Part shown: positions 2,343 to 37,661 of the stretch, in pieces
Layout: every line of letters starts with the position of its first letter
How positions within the stretch are numbered: the first letter of the stretch is position 1
Origin: Calditrichota bacterium
GTDB lineage: Bacteria > Calditrichota > Calditrichia > RBG-13-44-9
Length of the DNA: 37,661 bases
Assembly (NCBI GenBank): GCA_024276455.1
Contig: JAJRXE010000322.1
Location: 1 to 37,661, forward strand
Direction of reading: 5' to 3'
Made by a program: the position numbers and the translations under genes
Notes under the pieces: model-generated
Databases searched by the model: none
Told to the model about the DNA's origin: nothing
Seen by the model: only the letters and a program-made list of their open reading frames with translations

Positions 2343-3392
2343 CTACGACACGGATTCTACCTCGTTAAAGGCAGCTTTTATATGAGAAATCCAGTAATCG
2401 ATTAACTGGAAGTAGTTTTTGACTTCCGGGACGCCGCCCACCGAAAGCGGCACAATAACCGCCTTTCCCCCGATCTTCTCGGCAATCTCGCGGACTTTGC
2501 GCTCGTCGAAATAATTGGCCGCCAGAATTACTTTTACATGATATTGCCGCATTTTCTGAATCAGTTCTTCCACATGGCGGGGCGAAGGCGGAATCCCCGG
2601 CTTCGGCTCCACGTAACCGATGATGTCTAACCCAAACAATTGCTGGAAATACGCCCAATTTTTATGATACGCCACCAGTTTTTTTCCTCGCAACGGCAAC
2701 ATTTCTTTCATCCAACCGCCCAAATAATCAATTAATTTTTTCCCCTGAAACGTCTGGGATTGGAGAAAGGGAATGAGTTGATTGGAAAGAGCCAGACGGG
2801 TTAACATGTCTCCGCCCAGAATCTGCACCAGTTTTTCGCCGAACAGGCGGTTGTCTATTTCCTGCTTAAACTGTTTCAAACGAGCCTGGAAAAGATCGCA
2901 ATCCTGCGGGGCTACTTTGCAGAGGCCAATGGTAATGTTCTCGGCAATAATTTTAGCGTTAAGGGGACTGGTGTGGATGTGCGGATTACCGTAAATGTGC
3001 ACATCGCCCTGACTGCGATCCATGGTGGTGGGCACTTCCAGCATTTTTACCCCATCCGCTACCGCCACGTAGCCAGGCTGACCACTCCGGATTTTGGGAT
3101 TACGCGATTTGTCCACCAGAGTGGGCGCCCAGAGTTCCAGATCCAGGCCGGTTTCCACAAACAAATCAGCGTTGCTCAACCAGACGGCAAAACTGGGTTT
3201 GGGTTTCACAAAATGGGCGTCCTGGTCGCCCTGCACAATGGCTTTTACCTCCACTTTGTCGCCACCAATGTACTTGGCAATATCGGCGTAAACGGTCAGG
3301 GTGGTAACCACCCGGATTTTCGATGCCGCAAACAGGGTGAACGTCAGGGTTACCCAAAGCACTAAAACCAACCAAAACCGATATATTTTCAT
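2343..3392 (-). CDS. Metal ABC transporter substrate-binding protein (ZnuA/TroA cluster-9 family)
   Basis: Signal peptide, then KIRVVTTLTVYADIAKYIGGDKVEVKAIVQGDQDAHFVKPKPS and GDVHIYGNPHIHTSP, which are typical metal-liganding His motifs of the ZnuA/TroA fold. RBS AAAGGAG. Sits directly upstream of the permease. Confidence 0.85.
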   Translation of the reverse strand: MKIYRFWLVLVLWVTLTFTLFAASKIRVVTTLTVYADIAKYIGGDKVEVKAIVQGDQDAHFVKPKPSFAVWLSNADLFVETGLDLELWAPTLVDKSRNPKIRSGQPGYVAVADGVKMLEVPTTMDRSQGDVHIYGNPHIHTSPLNAKIIAENITIGLCKVAPQDCDLFQARLKQFKQEIDNRLFGEKLVQILGGDMLTRLALSNQLIPFLQSQTFQGKKLIDYLGGWMKEMLPLRGKKLVAYHKNWAYFQQLFGLDIIGYVEPKPGIPPSPRHVEELIQKMRQYHVKVILAANYFDERKVREIAEKIGGKAVIVPLSVGGVPEVKNYFQLIDYWISHIKAAFNEVESVS

Positions 3393-14684: not shown

Positions 14685-16145
14685 TTATTTCAGAACCGTC
14701 ATTTTTCGAATCAAGACGGTTCCGGACGCTTCCAGACGGTAAAAATAAACCCCGGACGTCAGGCCCTCGGCCTGGAAAGGCACTTCGTGGCGACCGGCTG
14801 GTAAAACCGCATTAAGCACGGTGGCCACTTCCCGTCCGTTCACATCGAACACCGTAAGGTGTACCTGCGAGGCGGCCGGTAGCTGAAATACAATGTTGGT
14901 GGTCGGATTAAAGGGATTCGGATAATTGGAAAGGGAAAACGTTTCCGGCACCTGCCGGGAAGGATCCACCGCAATTCCCACTGCCGAGGAGTAGGTAAAA
15001 GTCGTGCGTTCGTCGTTCTCCCAGGCTGTACCGTTCCAGACTTGCGAAACAATCTGACTCAGATTACCTGCTCCGTCGTAAGTGTACAGATCGCGAGTGT
15101 CGTTTGTCCAGGCAGAACCTTGCCAGCTCTGTCCCAGCTCTTCGGTTAATTTTTGCTGCGAATCATACGTGTACACATACCTTTCGCTATTCAACCAGCT
15201 CGTCCCATTCCACATCTGAATTAATTCTTCCAGCAGCTCATTGGCACTCCCGTAAGTGTACAGGATCTGAGAATTGTTGAACCAGTCGCTGCCACCCCAC
15301 ACCTGACCAATCTCGGCCGTATTATTGCCCTGACTGTCGTAGGTGTAAGTCCAGCGGGAAGAGTTCATCCAGTTGGTTCCGTCCCAGATTTGCTCAATGA
15401 CCTCGGTCACCTCACCATTGGTGTCATAGGTGGCTGTGCTTCGATTCGTATTGACCCAGGCGGACGCCACCATATCCCAATTCTGCGTCACCAATTCCAC
15501 CAGATTCCCGTTCGCATCGTAGGTGTAGGAGTCCCGGCTGCTGTTCATCCAGTCAGTGCCGATCCAGTACTGACTCACTTCCTCGGTAACCTTCCCATTT
15601 CCGTTGTAGGAATACACCACCCGAAACACATTTGTCCAAACATTGTTGTCCCATTGCTGGAATAGCAATTCCACCAGATAGCCATTGGCATCGTATGAGT
15701 AAACATTTTTAGAGGAATTAATCCAGGAAGCGGTGACATCGTCCCACTGCTGGTAAACTTCTTCACTGATGTTGCCGTTCGCTAAATACGTGTAAAGAGC
15801 CTTTCCGTCCTTCACCCAGCTGCCATTCTGCCAGGTTTCGAACAGAACTTCGACCAGCACATTATCATTCGCACCCAGCGTCACGGAAAGTACCGTAGCC
15901 CGGGGATGAGACATGCCGGCGGAAATTAGCCAGGAGGGCCATTGCACTTTCTCCGGAAAACGCGTCTGAAGATGCTGATAGTTTAACGGTCCCGGGGAAT
16001 TCGTCTGTAATTGCTGTTTTAATAAAATTGTGGGAGCGGAAGTTGTTCTCTCGCCCTTTACATTCGAAACGGCCCACCGGGGGACCAGGAAATAACTCAA
16101 CAAAAATAAAAATACCAGATAATTCCGTAGCAGATTACGCTTCAT
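14685..16145 (-). CDS. Secreted tandem-repeat protein (YD/RHS-like W..YTYD..GN repeats) with T9SS type-A C-terminal sorting domain
   Basis: Signal peptide, then ten ~29-31 aa repeats. The C-terminus NYPNPFNPTTNIVFQLP...LTVFDVNGREVATV...GVYFYRLEASG is characteristic of Por/T9SS C-terminal domains. Confidence 0.85.
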   Translation of the reverse strand: MKRNLLRNYLVFLFLLSYFLVPRWAVSNVKGERTTSAPTILLKQQLQTNSPGPLNYQHLQTRFPEKVQWPSWLISAGMSHPRATVLSVTLGANDNVLVEVLFETWQNGSWVKDGKALYTYLANGNISEEVYQQWDDVTASWINSSKNVYSYDANGYLVELLFQQWDNNVWTNVFRVVYSYNGNGKVTEEVSQYWIGTDWMNSSRDSYTYDANGNLVELVTQNWDMVASAWVNTNRSTATYDTNGEVTEVIEQIWDGTNWMNSSRWTYTYDSQGNNTAEIGQVWGGSDWFNNSQILYTYGSANELLEELIQMWNGTSWLNSERYVYTYDSQQKLTEELGQSWQGSAWTNDTRDLYTYDGAGNLSQIVSQVWNGTAWENDERTTFTYSSAVGIAVDPSRQVPETFSLSNYPNPFNPTTNIVFQLPAASQVHLTVFDVNGREVATVLNAVLPAGRHEVPFQAEGLTSGVYFYRLEASGTVLIRKMTVLK

Positions 16146-16468: not shown

Positions 16469-17533
16469 TCAATGCTGTTTCTCGGTCACTTCCGTGTTTG
16501 GGAAATAGGTACTCCAGACAAACCAGTACGCCGCGGTGGTGGGTAAATAGCGCAATTGGCGCCCTTGCAACTGTCCTGCCACACAGCGGCCTGTCGCCAG
16601 ATTCCAGGCGGATTGCGTTTCCCGATCGAAAATCTTCCCCGCGCCATTGCGAAAAAAGTGCAAAAGAGTGGTGTCCGTCCGGCTTAAAAAAGCCCGGACT
16701 CCCCCATCTTTTCCCCGGTAAACCACCACCGGCACGCCGCCGATTTGAGTCTGGAGTATTTCGCCTTCCCGTAACAAACTGTCCGGCACAGCCAGCGCCC
16801 GGTTTCCCAGACGTACCCCGTGCACCAGTGTTTTTCCGGGCAAGCGGCCCATGAGCCAGTGAGTCCGGAAGAGGCCTGTTTTCAGGGGCTCTTTAAAATA
16901 CGCATCGTAGGCAGAAAACAGATAATTCCGATCCTTTTTCAAAACCCGGGTGTGGTGATGAGCCGCCAGCCATTCCGCCCAGGTGGTTTGCACCGCCGGC
17001 AAAGTCTCCAGCCGGGCACCCTGCCAGGGACCCAGCAGGGCTTCTCCGGTTACATGACTCCAGTAACTACCCGTCTCCTGATCTTGCATGACCAGGCTGT
17101 TCCGCCACAAGCGCCCCGAAACATAAAAAGTGAAGACATTTGAACCAACTTTGCGGATGTACACGACAGCCGTGTGACAGAGGGGTCACCAGGTTGCGGC
17201 AATGGGGGTTCCGCCTAACACGTCGTTTACAATTTCGTGGCGGTCCAATTGCCAGAGGGAATAGGCAACCGCCTCGCCATTTACCACCAATCCCAGCACC
17301 GGTTCCTCGGGACGCATCTGGGCGGCGACGTCTTCGCCGGTCAAATATTCCGGATTGGTGAGCGCCGGAATGGTACCCGGCGGCAACACCTGGTACATGG
17401 AATCACCACCAATGACCGCCACCACAATTGGCCGGGGCGGCTGGGCGCTTCCCGGTACCAGGAATACCAGCAACATCAGGAGCAGAATTCCGCTCCCCCT
17501 TTTCGAATCGCTTGCCAACACCTTCTCTTCCAT
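16469..17533 (-). CDS. DUF3179-family protein with signal/anchor peptide; candidate selenoprotein (in-frame TGA at 17186-17188 read as Sec in a U-P-L-C motif)
   Basis: Track ORFs 17186..17533 and 16469..17164 share one frame. My minus-strand translation across the junction is ...VNDVLGGTPIAATW-TGA-PLCHTAVVYIRKVGSNVFTFYVSGRLWRNSLVMQDQETGSYWSHVTGEA... This matches the DUF3179 core (VND..GG.P..VT(Y/F/W)CPLC......R......F..SG.L..S..VM.D.ETGS.WSQ) as I recall it. Confidence 0.7.
17158..17179 (-). promoter_or_regulatory. Candidate bacterial SECIS hairpin downstream of the in-frame UGA
   Basis: mRNA: UGA-CCCCUC-UGU(C)ACACG-GCUGU-CGUGUACA. Eight base pairs with one bulged C and a 5-nt apical loop starting with G, 15 nt after the UGA. 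This fits the general bSECIS layout (G early in the apical loop, loop ~16-37 nt from the UGA). Confidence 0.45.
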
Positions 17534-31207: not shown

Positions 31208-31792
31208 GTGAAAACACTAAAAATGCGAAGCATAAATTGGCTGGGAATTGGTGTACTGGTAATTTGGAGCCTGCAATTGTCGGCCGGATTTACCCAGAAC
31301 CCACTTCCCCCAATTAGCAACAAATCATGCGCTCAGGAGGATTACCGCATGCCGGACCAGCAGAATTACGAAAAATCGGATTTAAAAAATAAACTCTCAC
31401 CGCTACAATACTGGGTGACTCAGGAAAACGGTACCGAACCGCCTTTTACCGGCAAATACTACCACTTCCACGAGCCCGGAACGTACGTTTGTGTGGTTTG
31501 CGGCACGCCGCTTTTCAGCTCTGCGGACAAATACGACTCCGGCAGCGGTTGGCCCAGCTTTCGGGATGCCCTTGCGGAAGGCAATATCGAGCTTCGAGAA
31601 GACCATAGCCTCTCCATGGAACGTACGGAAGTCCGCTGTAAAAAATGCGGTGCCCATCTGGGACACCTCTTCGACGATGGTCCGGCGCCCACTTACACGC
31701 GCTACTGCATCAATTCCGCTGCCTTGAATTTTATTCCTGCTGGAAAAGACACCACCTCTTCGGAGGAAAAAAGAGAGCAGAGCAAACGCTGA
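31208..31792 (+). CDS. msrB: Peptide-methionine (R)-S-oxide reductase MsrB with N-terminal signal peptide
   Basis: [13 protein letters not shown], two CxxC zinc motifs ([21 protein letters not shown]), GWPSF, and catalytic RYCINSAAL. About 60 aa of signal peptide plus linker precede the domain. GTG start 4 nt after AAAGGAG. Confidence 0.9.
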
Positions 31793-35659: not shown

Positions 35660-36643
35660 ATGCGCAGACGCGATTTCCTCCGCAAGAGCATTCTCATTGG
35701 CGCCGGTTTTTCCTGGTTTCCAACCTACCAGACTCTTTTTCCGGAATTGGGCGCCAGTCCGGCACGTTCGCGGGTGGTTCAAATCAACGATCCTCAAGTC
35801 CGCAAAGGTCATTCCTTCGACGAAAAACGGATTGAGGCCATGCTCGACCGGGGCCTTTCCCTTCTGTACGATCAGGAACCGGTGGAGAAAATCTGGGCGA
35901 ATCTGTTCTCCAAAAAAGACGTTGTGGGAATTAAAGTGAACTGCCTTTCGGGAGAACACGGTTCCACGCATCCCATTCTGGTAAATGCAATCATCGAGAA
36001 ACTGCGCCGGATCGGTATTCCGGCGGGCAATATTATCATCTGGGACCGTTTGAACGAGGACCTCGAGAGCGCCGGTTACCCCATTAACTGGAAAAATCGC
36101 CACAAGGTACTGAGTTTTGGCAACGATGCGGTTGGGTTTGACAACAAGCTTTACATCAACGGGTCGGTAGGAAGTTTAATTACCCGCACCGTGACCCAAC
36201 TGTGTACCGCCATCATTAATGTGCCGGTTTTAAAAGATCACGGCATTGTGGGGGTTACCCTGGCCATGAAAAACTTTTTTGGCGCCATCCACAATCCCAA
36301 TAAATACCACGACAACAATGGCGATCCTTACGTTGCCGACCTTTACCAGCTCCGGGTAATTCGCCAGAAAGTTCGCTTAACCATTTGCGATGCGCTGGAT
36401 GCCCAGTACGAAGGCGGTCCTCCTTTCAAACCGCAATGGAACTGGCCTCTGAACGCCCTGTTATTCTCATTGGATGCGGTGGCTCTGGATCGGGTGGGCT
36501 GGGAAATCATCGAACGGAAACGGAAAGAAAAGGGATTTCCATCGTTAAAAGAAGCAGGACGGGAGCCCCGTTACATTCTGACGGCGGGGAGAAAAGGAAT
36601 CGGAGAAAGCGACCTCTCGAAGATCGAATGGATTCGCAGTTGA
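35660..36643 (+). CDS. DUF362 domain-containing protein with twin-arginine (Tat) signal
   Basis: MRRRDFLRKSILIGAGFSWF is a Tat-type leader. The body (VGIKVNCLSGEHGSTHP, INVPVLKDHGIVGVTLAMKNFFG, DALDAQYEGGP) resembles DUF362. Confidence 0.75.
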   Translation: MRRRDFLRKSILIGAGFSWFPTYQTLFPELGASPARSRVVQINDPQVRKGHSFDEKRIEAMLDRGLSLLYDQEPVEKIWANLFSKKDVVGIKVNCLSGEHGSTHPILVNAIIEKLRRIGIPAGNIIIWDRLNEDLESAGYPINWKNRHKVLSFGNDAVGFDNKLYINGSVGSLITRTVTQLCTAIINVPVLKDHGIVGVTLAMKNFFGAIHNPNKYHDNNGDPYVADLYQLRVIRQKVRLTICDALDAQYEGGPPFKPQWNWPLNALLFSLDAVALDRVGWEIIERKRKEKGFPSLKEAGREPRYILTAGRKGIGESDLSKIEWIRS

Positions 36644-36654
36644 GGAATCTGCCC

Positions 36655-37661
36655 ATGAAGGAATTCTTGAAATTAAATCGGCGGCAATTTTTGACCCTCT
36701 GCAGCGTGGCGGGCGGCTACTCCCTGGTGCATTCTCTCGAGCCGCTTTCCGCGATGGTTCCGGGCAATCCTTCCCGTAAAAGCCATCGGGTCAAAGCTCG
36801 CTGGTACGAGGAATTACCTTCCAAGCGGGTAAAATGTAAGCTCTGTCCGCGTGAATGCCAGGTGGACGATCGGGAACGGGGCTATTGCGGTGTGCGAGAA
36901 AATTGGGACGGTGTGTATTACACCCTGGTGCATTCGCGCCCCTGCACGTACCATGTGGATCCCATTGAGAAAAAGCCCCTTTTCCATTTTCTGCCCGGGA
37001 GCACCGCTTTTTCCCTTGCCACCGTGGGCTGTAATGTCAACTGCCAGTTTTGCCAGAATTGGCAAATCTCTCAGATTCGCCCGGAGCAAATCACCAATTT
37101 AGATATGCCGCCTAAAGAAGTGGTTCGGATGACCCGGCAAGCCGATTCCCGCATTATTGCTTACACCTACACCGAACCGGTGGTGTTTTCGGAATACGTT
37201 TACGACACGGCTGCCGAAGGTCGTAAAAAGGGCATTCGCAGCGTCATGATTACCAACGGTTACATTCAGGAAAAACCCATGCGCGACCTGGCCGAAGTGC
37301 TGGACGCGGTGAAAGTGGACCTGAAGGCTTTCAGCGAAAAATATTACCGCGAAATTGTGGTGGGCGAATTGAAACCGGTGCTCGACACCCTGGTGCTCCT
37401 GCGCAAGCTAAACATGTGGACGGAAATTGTTTACCTGGTTGTGCCCACGCTTAACGATAGCGAGCGCGAATTCACGGCTCTGTGCCGTTGGATTAAACAA
37501 AACCTGGGGGTGGACGTGCCGGTTCACTTCACCCGTTTTTATCCTCAATACAAACTGCAAAATCTTCCGCCCACCCCGGTAGCTACCCTGGAAAAAGCCC
37601 ACGACATCGCCCGGGCAGAAGGAATCAAATTTGTGTACATCGGCAACGTTCCCGGACATCC
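36655..37661 (+). CDS. AmmeMemoRadiSam-type radical SAM enzyme (PflA-like activase family), with Tat-like N-terminal leader; C-terminus outside the window
   Basis: Absent from the ORF track because the ORF is open at the window end. My translation gives MKEFLKLNRRQFLTLCSVAGGYSLVHSLEPLSAMVPGN...RVKCKLCPRECQVDDRERGYCGVREN...DPIEKKPLFHFLPGS..SLATVGCNVNCQFCQNWQIS...YTYTEPVVFSEYV...ITNGYI...VKVDLKAF...YLVVPTLNDS...VHFTRFYPQYKL. The CxxxCxxC motif and flanking blocks match the AmrS/PflX-like family. It starts 11 nt after the DUF362 stop, with RBS GAGGA. Confidence 0.85.
   Translation, partial: MKEFLKLNRRQFLTLCSVAGGYSLVHSLEPLSAMVPGNPSRKSHRVKARWYEELPSKRVKCKLCPRECQVDDRERGYCGVRENWDGVYYTLVHSRPCTYHVDPIEKKPLFHFLPGSTAFSLATVGCNVNCQFCQNWQISQIRPEQITNLDMPPKEVVRMTRQADSRIIAYTYTEPVVFSEYVYDTAAEGRKKGIRSVMITNGYIQEKPMRDLAEVLDAVKVDLKAFSEKYYREIVVGELKPVLDTLVLLRKLNMWTEIVYLVVPTLNDSEREFTALCRWIKQNLGVDVPVHFTRFYPQYKLQNLPPTPVATLEKAHDIARAEGIKFVYIGNVPGH

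Follow-up and report, generated by a model that had tools for sequence, protein, structure and literature searches.

The minus-strand locus at 16469..17533 is very probably one gene, encoding a selenocysteine (Sec)-containing DUF3179 protein in which an in-frame UGA is decoded via SelB and a SECIS element, giving a probably exported protein with a presumed UxxC redox function. The gene is complete, with 354 codons plus a stop and with Sec as residue 116, and the window analysed (37.6 kb) is the entire contig on which it lies. The Sec reading is strongly supported by sequence evidence, namely a single reading frame, alignment of Sec with a conserved Cys, a TGA that recurs across phyla, purifying selection both before and after it, a covarying downstream hairpin and ordinary use of TGA as a stop elsewhere in the window.

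The gene is an ordinary, mis-annotated member of a known selenoprotein family and does not found a new one. DUF3179 (PF11376), with the motif UxxC/T, is listed in the prokaryotic selenoprotein catalogue of Zhang et al. 2022 (PMC9312934) and again in that of Zhang et al. 2026 (PMC13188914), and both credit it to Zhang & Gladyshev, NAR 2007 (PMC1976440), who worked from the Olavius algarvensis symbiont metagenome; as catalogued, the family is a computational prediction (PMC9312934, PMC13188914). The proposal of a candidate new selenoprotein, made in a first-pass annotation of this DNA, is thus superseded. The window protein shares with the catalogued members the Pfam domain, Sec at the first residue of the CxxC pair, the U-x-x-C arrangement and a bacterial-type SECIS directly downstream within the coding sequence (CDS), and nothing essential is different. 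Two features set the window copy apart: Ala at residue 122, where Gly is the rule, a change that creates a C·U mismatch in the SECIS stem, and an extra, window-specific alternative hairpin.

On the minus strand, 17533..16469 reads as one frame, whose sole internal in-frame TGA is at 17188..17186. The 115-aa ORF (17186..17533) and the 231-aa ORF (16469..17164) lie in this same frame, separated by that TGA plus 21 stop-free nt, as retranslation confirmed for the first-pass description of the locus; the translation runs from HEIVNDVLGGTPIAATW through the TGA into PLCHTAVVYIRK. The gene contains no frameshifts or stops other than the TGA at 17188..17186, and its genuine stop codon (16469..16471, minus strand) is also TGA, without a SECIS behind it. 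In public annotation, the only called product is a 206-aa C-terminal fragment (P0001, starting MQDQ...), which matches 58% of the query at 100% identity. Such truncation is widespread: among the best 120 database homologues, ~90 are C-terminal fragments of 195–250 aa that begin just past the motif, which is the signature of gene callers halting at a Sec codon. The start codons of these fragments differ in place between homologues (VVY..., MHV..., MGS..., MQD...), a pattern that points to artefacts of gene calling and away from a conserved start.

When the TGA is read as Cys, the protein matches PF11376 with 237.4 bits (cut-off, 27; E=3e-70) over residues 54–347 and profile positions 3–292 of 292, spanning the TGA, so that the family assignment of the first-pass annotation holds over the full length of the domain. 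NCBIfam contains no model for the protein. The Sec codon UGA (residue U116; 17186..17188, minus strand) opens a redox-type motif U-P-L-C (U116, P117, L118 and C119; 17177..17188, minus strand), which is followed by H120 and fits the UxxC/T motif entry for DUF3179 (PMC9312934, PMC13188914). In the alignment, the TGA coincides, as the first-pass annotation had stated, with the conserved Cys that opens C-P-L-C after W or Y; the Cys forms showing this are the homologues P0002, P0006, P0007, P0008, P0033 and P0111 and 22 genomic loci. Variants that retain the first position of the motif and lose the second are also found, namely U-P-L-L in locus L027 and C-P-L-T in paralogues.

Comparison of orthologous loci likewise favoured the first-pass interpretation of a UGA-decoded Sec within U-P-L-C. 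Among 80 GTDB species-representative loci, 54 carry TGA at exactly the same codon, with the protein conserved on both sides, while TGC or TGT occupies this position in 22. The TGA-carrying genomes come from about ten phyla and include Zixibacteria, Acidobacteriota, Krumholzibacteriota, Calditrichota, Eisenbacteria, Gemmatimonadales, Ignavibacteria, Neomarinimicrobiota and Thermodesulfobacteriota. The only close relatives of the window lineage are GCA_054007975.1 and two metagenome contigs. The same TGA is present in the close-relative assemblies L081, L082 and L083, which are independent of one another in source (NCBI, Logan and ENA) and share with the window an upstream TPR gene; the two closest relatives (74–77% identity) have TGA at the same codon and the same synteny. 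Comparison with the L081 orthologue gave a dN/dS of 0.16 for the part preceding the TGA and of 0.12 for the part following it.

The family SECIS is a hairpin at UGA-relative columns 17–23/29–35, represented in the window by CGG-C-UGU [CGUGU] ACA-U-CCG (17154..17172, minus strand). In the family its stem has 7 bp and begins 13 nt past the UGA, and its loop (17165..17161 in the window) holds G25 and U26, both invariant in 50 of 50 Sec-type sequences. Across these 50 sequences 94.3% of cells are paired, compared with 26–52% in slid controls; double changes occur at four of the seven pairs, with 24 compensated cells, and the combination of covariation and pairing was matched by none of 500 shuffles, figures to be read with the region being coding and the 50 sequences being phylogenetically related. 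As compensatory changes, 9 sequences have C-G in place of G-C, 11 have A-U in place of G-C, and 3, the window among them, have U-A in place of C-G; the U21-A31 pair of the window is a compensated change that L081 and L030 also have. De novo prediction with RNAalifold returned the same stem. The nearest Cys form (L009) is without the hairpin, with three of seven pairs and −2.7 kcal/mol.

For a covariance model, 48 other genomes were used, with the window and its closest relative excluded, and the model's sole strong match on both strands of the 37.6 kb was the segment of UGA plus SECIS at 17144..17188 (minus strand; 55 bits, E about 1e-18 by rough calibration; next match 8 bits), much of the score coming from coding-sequence conservation. 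Rfam holds no model recognising the SECIS and gave noise matches only, both for the whole window at gathering thresholds and for 16900–17400 at E≤10.

The window copy of the hairpin is among the weakest in the family, which counts against the Sec reading: six of seven pairs form, C20·U32 is mismatched because of the Gly-to-Ala change (GGU to GCU), and the hairpin alone has an energy of −4.2 kcal/mol versus a family mean of −10.2 kcal/mol (22-nt hairpin). The first-pass annotation had picked out a different hairpin, UGU(C)ACACG [GCUGU] CGUGUACA (17158..17179, minus strand), which is indeed present in the sequence at its reported position, starting 6 nt past the UGA with its loop 15 nt past the UGA, and which is mutually exclusive with the conserved one. 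It is not conserved elsewhere: at its columns (10–18/24–31) 66% of cells are paired in the 50 Sec-type sequences, below all shuffles and with no covariation, so the SECIS role is better assigned to the conserved hairpin 5–7 nt further downstream (17172..17154). Folding of the 71-nt region of the alternative hairpin was no better than chance relative to shuffles (z=+1.07). In the window taken alone, however, the alternative hairpin is thermodynamically the stronger (−6.8 versus −4.2 kcal/mol), with a base-pair probability of 0.3–0.64, and, folded in isolation, should make up most of the predicted ensemble, a further point against the Sec reading; both hairpins reach −8.0 kcal/mol in a 60-nt context with a lower stem. 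For the window gene, the choice between the two overlapping hairpins is one of prediction, and the hairpin bound by SelB may conceivably lie 5–7 nt upstream of the ancestral one, whose stem is weakened by a single non-synonymous change; the alternative stem has gained strength through two synonymous changes.

Bacterial SECIS elements (bSECIS) are described by four features: (i) an apical loop of 3–9 nt on an upper stem of 4–16 bp; (ii) a G as first or second nucleotide of the apical loop, with G or U as its usual successor; (iii) a distance of 16–37 nt from the UGA to the apical loop; (iv) a minimum free energy no higher than −7.5 kcal/mol (PMC13188914). The family hairpin conforms to all four, its stem and loop being 7 bp and 5 nt or, alternatively, 8 bp and 3 nt. 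For the window copy, a 5-nt loop sits on 3 bp, the C·U mismatch and 3 bp; the loop reads C-G-U-G-U (17165..17161), with G at its second position; the spacing of the conserved hairpin is 20 nt (columns 4–23); and the energy of −4.2 kcal/mol falls short of −7.5 kcal/mol unless the 60-nt context (−8.0 kcal/mol) is counted. In the alternative hairpin, a stem of 5 bp, a bulge and 3 bp carries a 5-nt loop, and at −6.8 kcal/mol alone this hairpin too lies above the energy threshold; its loop follows the UGA as first described, yet the 15-nt spacing is one short of the bSECIS range. Compared with the bSECIS model, the window SECIS differs in that its stem amounts to just 3+3 bp flanking a 1x1 internal loop, and in its low stability when taken alone.

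The critical loop bases of the E. coli fdhF SECIS are G23/U24, counted from the U of the UGA, and their counterparts in the DUF3179 SECIS are G25/U26. Like the fdhF-type element and the bSECIS consensus, the DUF3179 element is a stem-loop that lies within the CDS directly past the UGA and presents G then U in a small apical loop; unlike them, it has a short stem of 7 bp with no obvious bulged U.

Elsewhere in the window, no tRNA-Sec was detected by ARAGORN or Rfam (only tRNA-Phe), and no SelA, SelB or SelD Pfam domain was found among the 29 ORFs scanned, in line with the first-pass statement that selA, selB, selD and tRNA-Sec are not on this stretch. Other TGA-interrupted genes in the window were sought as an independent sign of Sec use, and no candidate survived; one at 36545–37111 (minus strand) was rejected for having no coding character. 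Around the orthologues, no tRNA-Sec was found by ARAGORN in 83 loci, and a tally of Pfam families among the 175 ORFs that flank Sec-type loci revealed no conserved operon partner.

Three features of the locus could be turned against a recoded UGA: the selA, selB, selC and selD genes were not found on this contig, a GTG start (17164) lies 21 nt past the TGA, and the sequence derives from one metagenome-assembled contig alone. The first two would fit a UGA that is either a real stop, giving an exported 115-aa fragment and a cytoplasmic 231-aa fragment from the GTG, or a codon that is translated into Trp, Cys or Gly, through near-cognate decoding or reassignment. Such a UGA is improbable, given that the TGA falls exactly on the conserved, catalytic-type Cys column, that the hairpin of bSECIS geometry downstream covaries, that start codons past the motif vary in position between homologues and that the DUF3179 domain runs through the site without a break, a Cys homologue being modelled as a single chain (pLDDT 92.6). 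Moreover, TGA is the ordinary stop in 9 of the 26 Pfam-supported genes of the window, which argues against reassignment of the code. As to the single contig, a sequencing or assembly error concealing a real TGC or TGT is scarcely conceivable, the identical TGA being found in the independent assemblies L081, L082 and L083 and in 54 other genomes.

Decay of the gene was weighed as well, that is, a TGC/TGT-to-TGA nonsense mutation in a Cys-type DUF3179 gene with the two ORFs as its remnants. The treatment of the locus as a truncated gene in public annotation (P0001) and a local SECIS weaker than that of the relatives are what a pseudogene might show; however, this very remote explanation is effectively refuted by the recurrence of this TGA in the closest relatives and in 54 species-level genomes spread over many phyla, by a gene body free of frameshifts and added stops, by a dN/dS of 0.12–0.16 on both sides of the TGA and by the compensated U21-A31 pair that the window hairpin has in common with L081 and L030.

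For the preferred reading, a Sec-containing DUF3179 protein, the following course of events is proposed. The UGA at 17188..17186 would be recoded to Sec by SelB-GTP-Sec-tRNA(Sec), with SelB recruited by the short in-CDS SECIS hairpin 13 nt downstream of the UGA, whose apical loop would present G-U about 22 nt from the UGA. After Sec, a further 238 codons would be translated up to the genuine TGA (16471..16469), yielding a 354-residue product that would be exported by means of a cleavable N-terminal signal peptide and in which Sec116 would serve as the attacking and Cys119 as the resolving residue.

A Sec-type signal peptide is predicted at residues 1–30 (17444..17533, minus strand), as read from the translation: inspection by eye shows a basic n-region (K11 R12), a hydrophobic h-region (I16–V26, ILLLMLLVFLV) and G-S-A followed by Q-P-P, with putative cleavage between A and Q, which agrees with the N-terminal signal or anchor proposed earlier. 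Equivalent hydrophobic N-termini are present in the full-length homologues P0002, P0005 and P0006. The predicted signal peptide implies a probably exported, periplasmic protein. Cys-form homologues P0111, P0113 and P0114 are fusions to thioredoxin/AhpC-TSA/Redoxin domains, and from the motif and these fusions U116-x-x-C119 is most likely a selenol/thiol redox centre.

In its signal peptide and U-x-x-C dyad the protein resembles the exported thioredoxin-fold UxxC/CxxU selenoproteins (DsbA-like/thiol:disulfide interchange), with which it probably shares selenol/thiol-disulfide exchange, DUF3179 homologues (P0111, P0113 and P0114) being fused to TlpA/AhpC-like domains. It differs from them in fold. 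The AlphaFold model of the Cys homologue P0002, of the same pLDDT of 92.6, is almost all beta, and its only credible Foldseek neighbours are Rieske-type ferredoxin domains and not thioredoxins (probability about 1, TM-score normalised to the target, TMt, 0.52–0.62, with non-significant E-values). No thioredoxin-family Pfam domain was found in the window protein, and PDB sequence searches with the single sequence and a profile gave no significant homologue, the best matches being Rieske-domain proteins (E 0.4–0.9). Assignment to the thioredoxin-fold thiol:disulfide oxidoreductases, whose CxxC/UxxC stands at the N-terminus of helix 1, was rejected on the missing Pfam match, the beta-rich model and the Rieske-type Foldseek matches. 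The DUF3179 protein may thus act in the manner of a thiol-disulfide oxidoreductase, and the modelled fold places it outside the thioredoxin fold family.

A bolder and rather doubtful reading is that DUF3179 represents an uncharacterised class, either an exported selenol/thiol oxidoreductase or a metal-handling protein, with two tandem Rieske-like beta domains from which the Fe-S ligands have been lost; a lesser addition to this reading is the shifted hairpin in the window gene. In the Rieske-like case, the active site could consist of the Sec/Cys-x-x-Cys together with the invariant His of H-E-[IV]-V-N-D in the N-terminal domain, and, if true, a UxxC enzyme of non-thioredoxin fold would be distributed across at least ten mostly uncultured phyla. 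As side observations, H100-x15-U116-x-x-C119 was considered as a mimic of the Rieske CxH...CxxH ligand spacing, a lead only; a weak profile alignment located the strands resembling the Rieske 'vvvvR..dG.vrAF' within the C-terminal domain; and, to judge from an internal-repeat analogy, the CPLC would lie at a beta-turn.

The catalogue of selenoprotein families is left unchanged by the window gene. Its main value lies in annotation: this contig and ~90 of the 120 best homologues are recorded as truncated C-terminal fragments, so a whole, probably exported selenoprotein is missed in many MAGs of Zixibacteria, Acidobacteriota, Krumholzibacteriota, Calditrichota and other phyla. The analysis provides a concrete, covariation-supported consensus of the DUF3179 SECIS that is usable for automatic correction of gene calls, and the presence of a DUF3179 selenoprotein gene would mark its host as a probable user of Sec.

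The DUF3179 gene on the minus strand (17533..16469) translates in one frame of 354 sense codons that ends at a terminal TGA (16471..16469), with an internal TGA (17188..17186) as the sole in-frame stop. The ORF finder reproduced the reported split, in which ORFs of 115 and 231 aa share a frame and are separated by the TGA plus 21 stop-free nt. Translated with Cys at the TGA, the product matched Pfam DUF3179 (PF11376; E=3e-70) over profile positions 3–292 of 292, so the domain is uninterrupted across the TGA. As the first-pass annotation had anticipated, the TGA column aligns with the first Cys of W-C-P-L-C-H in full-length database homologues (P0002, P0006, P0007, P0008, P0033 and P0111). The proposed export signal was also borne out by eye: the N-terminus (K11 R12, ILLLMLLVFLV and G-S-A followed by Q) resembles a Sec-pathway signal peptide, and homologues do likewise. 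Likewise as noted before, domains of the selenocysteine machinery were absent among the 29 ORFs scanned in the window, where tRNA-Phe is the only tRNA.

Several independent lines of evidence favour decoding of this TGA. One genome per GTDB species was scanned, yielding 80 homologous loci, 54 of which carry TGA at exactly the same position with the protein conserved on both sides (HEIVND-x10-W-(TGA)-P-L-C-H/F/Y-T-G-V-V); the others have TGC or TGT (22), TAC (1) or a contig ending before the motif (3). Taxon labels of the genomes with TGA include Zixibacteria, Acidobacteriota (Thermoanaerobaculia, Holophagae), Krumholzibacteriota, Calditrichota, Eisenbacteria, Gemmatimonadales, Ignavibacteria, GN15, Neomarinimicrobiota and Thermodesulfobacteriota. 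Moreover, fragments of 195–250 aa make up about 90 of the 120 best database homologues; they start at an arbitrary GTG or ATG just past the C-x-x-C (VVYARTL, MHVRQIG, MGSYVF), as expected of gene callers that stop at a Sec codon. The DUF3179 locus is mis-annotated as a fragment. An assembly error is ruled out by the nearest relatives, L081 (GCA_054007975.1; 74% identity), L082 (a Logan assembly) and L083 (an ENA metagenome; 77%), in which the identical split and TGA recur immediately after the same TPR gene of ~760 aa. Neither a decaying pseudogene nor an untranslated downstream half is compatible with dN/dS against L081, which is 0.16 upstream of the TGA (mature part) and 0.12 downstream of it. 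Furthermore, TGA is the stop of 9 of the 26 Pfam-supported genes in the window (the DUF3179 gene itself counted), therefore the genetic code is standard. The locus is thus very probably a real selenoprotein gene.

The first-pass annotation had presented it as a candidate new selenoprotein; this central claim of novelty fails, as full-text search found DUF3179 in two selenoprotein catalogues. One lists a DUF3179 domain-containing protein (pfam11376, UxxC/T, MBW1804167.1; Zhang et al. 2022, PMC9312934) and the other has PF11376 with UxxC/T and 1 Sec (MDJ0986319.1; Zhang et al. 2026, PMC13188914). Each refers to Zhang & Gladyshev 2007, a study of the Olavius algarvensis symbionts (PMC1976440). 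In its available text the new families are called OS_HP1-3 and the like, and none is identified as DUF3179. One further paper names the domain in passing only. The gene therefore belongs to a family that was predicted computationally and is already in the catalogues, as is its motif; no experimental confirmation or function for it was reported in the literature found by full-text search.

The 45 nt from the TGA onward were aligned gap-free for 50 distinct TGA-bearing sequences, revealing a conserved hairpin at columns 17–23/29–35 (counted from the TGA; consensus CGGGCGU, loop GGUNU, ACGCCCG) with 94.3% of cells paired. Two-sided changes occur in four of the seven stem pairs: G18-C34 to C-G (9 sequences), G22-C30 to A-U (11), C21-G31 to U-A (3) and G19-C33 to A-U (one). 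The observed pairing or covariation was matched by none of 500 shuffles, sliding the 3′ arm by 1–3 columns lowered pairing to 26–52%, and de novo prediction with RNAalifold returned the same stem. G25 and U26 are invariant in the apical loop, which starts 20 nt past the UGA, and the 22-nt hairpin averages −10.2 kcal mol−1. Published bSECIS criteria are a 3–9 nt loop on a 4–16 bp stem, a G at loop position 1 or 2, 16–37 nt spacing and −7.5 kcal mol−1 or lower (PMC13188914); the family hairpin therefore lies within all four. The nearest Cys-type homologue (L009, the locus of P0002) lacks it (3/7 pairs, −2.7 kcal mol−1). Some of the conservation signal is inherited, given that these are related sequences of a coding segment. 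Of the two changes in a double substitution of the stem, often one is synonymous and the other is not, a pattern that speaks for selection acting on the RNA. A covariance model trained on 48 other genomes (the window and L081 left out) gave one strong match in the window, at 17188..17144 on the minus strand (55 bits, rough E ~1e-18; next 8 bits).

The hairpin originally proposed as SECIS, starting 6 nt after the UGA (columns 10–18/24–31), is unconserved: 66% of its cells are paired, below every shuffle, with 1 compensated cell. In the conserved register the window has CGG-C-UGU, loop CGUGU, ACA-U-CCG (17172..17154, minus strand), with 6/7 pairs formed, among them U21-A31, a compensated variant common to L081 and L030. 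Residue 122, Gly (GGN) in nearly all relatives, is Ala (GCU) here, so that G20·U32 becomes a C·U mismatch; L017 and L048 have the same Ala and mismatch. The SECIS of the window is thus atypical within the family. Folded alone, the conserved hairpin reaches −4.2 kcal mol−1 versus −6.8 for the overlapping one, which dominates the predicted ensemble, and in a 60-nt context either gives −8.0 kcal mol−1. The segment at 17154–17179 (minus strand) differs from L081:9962–10006 at three nucleotides: two synonymous changes (UGC to UGU, CAU to CAC) strengthen the overlapping hairpin, and the Gly-to-Ala change weakens the ancestral stem. All three act in the same direction. This could be a register shift or, as a single case, chance; by homology, the conserved register would be the more likely SelB site.

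Two observations concern loci with other codons. At L064:3289 the Sec column is occupied by Tyr (TAC), yet 6/7 hairpin pairs remain. At several Actinomycetota Cys-type (TGC/TGT) loci, including L059, L069 and L076 (about 3192–3236), the S-A-V-A-Y-D-R-R codons span a GC-rich hairpin of another register that is strong (up to −15 kcal mol−1). The clade does not share it consistently, and it may be either a relic or a coincidence of the coding sequence.

Among 175 flanking ORFs, no conserved neighbour of the Sec-type loci was found. FlpD/MvhD-like ORFs (PF02662), a family with selenoprotein members, lie upstream of seven Sec-type loci (7 of 90 upstream ORFs). A Cys-type DUF3179 paralogue stands in tandem at 3–4 Zixibacteria loci, for example L053:2134, L058:2132 and L060:1979, on the same strand immediately upstream of Sec-type copies at about 3300, 3298 and 3145, respectively; their motif Y-C-P-L-T-G-S retains the first Cys only. 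Other neighbours are heterogeneous. Synteny within the lineage of the window, with a TPR protein upstream and sbcD/sbcC-like genes downstream, gives no clue to function. Between the DUF3179 and sbcD-like genes sits a 486-aa repeat protein whose C-terminus is a T9SS sorting domain (14685–16145, minus strand; Por_Secre_tail, with DUF3836 and RHS-repeat matches besides), which hints at the FCB group for the host; at this place the otherwise syntenic L081 has just one ORF of 120 aa. NadA of the window shares 92% identity with its counterpart in GCA_054007975.1 and about 72–74% with those of MAGs labelled Calditrichaeota, Terriglobia or 'bacterium'. The MsrB gene (31208–31792, plus strand) has no in-frame TGA and encodes an ordinary Cys-type enzyme; its Pfam domain name, 'SelR', derives from mammalian selenoprotein R and is no evidence of Sec use.

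The AlphaFold model of the Cys homologue P0002 (me4727785e514; pLDDT 92.6, pTM 0.88) is almost all beta. Foldseek found no significant PDB neighbour, its only high-probability matches being Rieske-type ferredoxin domains (target-normalised TM-score 0.52–0.62, E 0.07–0.1). A PDB-sequence profile search weakly aligned the C-terminal domain (vvvvRgedGgvrAF) with a Rieske start (vvivRsrdGevrAFhNsCrHR) at a non-significant E of 0.4–0.9, and this stretch, unlike Rieske domains, lacks the Cys/His ligands. Judged from these results, the protein lies outside the thioredoxin fold. The order of secondary structures (beta-beta-alpha-beta-beta-beta) repeats at residues of about 70–165 and 230–345 of the window's protein. 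Together with the weak Rieske similarities, the repeat suggests a tandem of two Rieske-like beta domains devoid of Fe-S ligands, with CPLC in the first. The homologue P0005 has Arg at the Sec column (W-R-P-L-C), and L027:3304 has U-P-L-L, without the second Cys. Thioredoxin, AhpC-TSA or Redoxin fusions in three Cys-type homologues, and dyad variants that keep the first position and lose the second (U-P-L-L, C-P-L-T), are consistent with a Sec/Cys that acts as the nucleophile and has a resolving partner, the arrangement of thiol-disulfide oxidoreductases. Therefore, the DUF3179 protein may well work like a thiol/selenol oxidoreductase.
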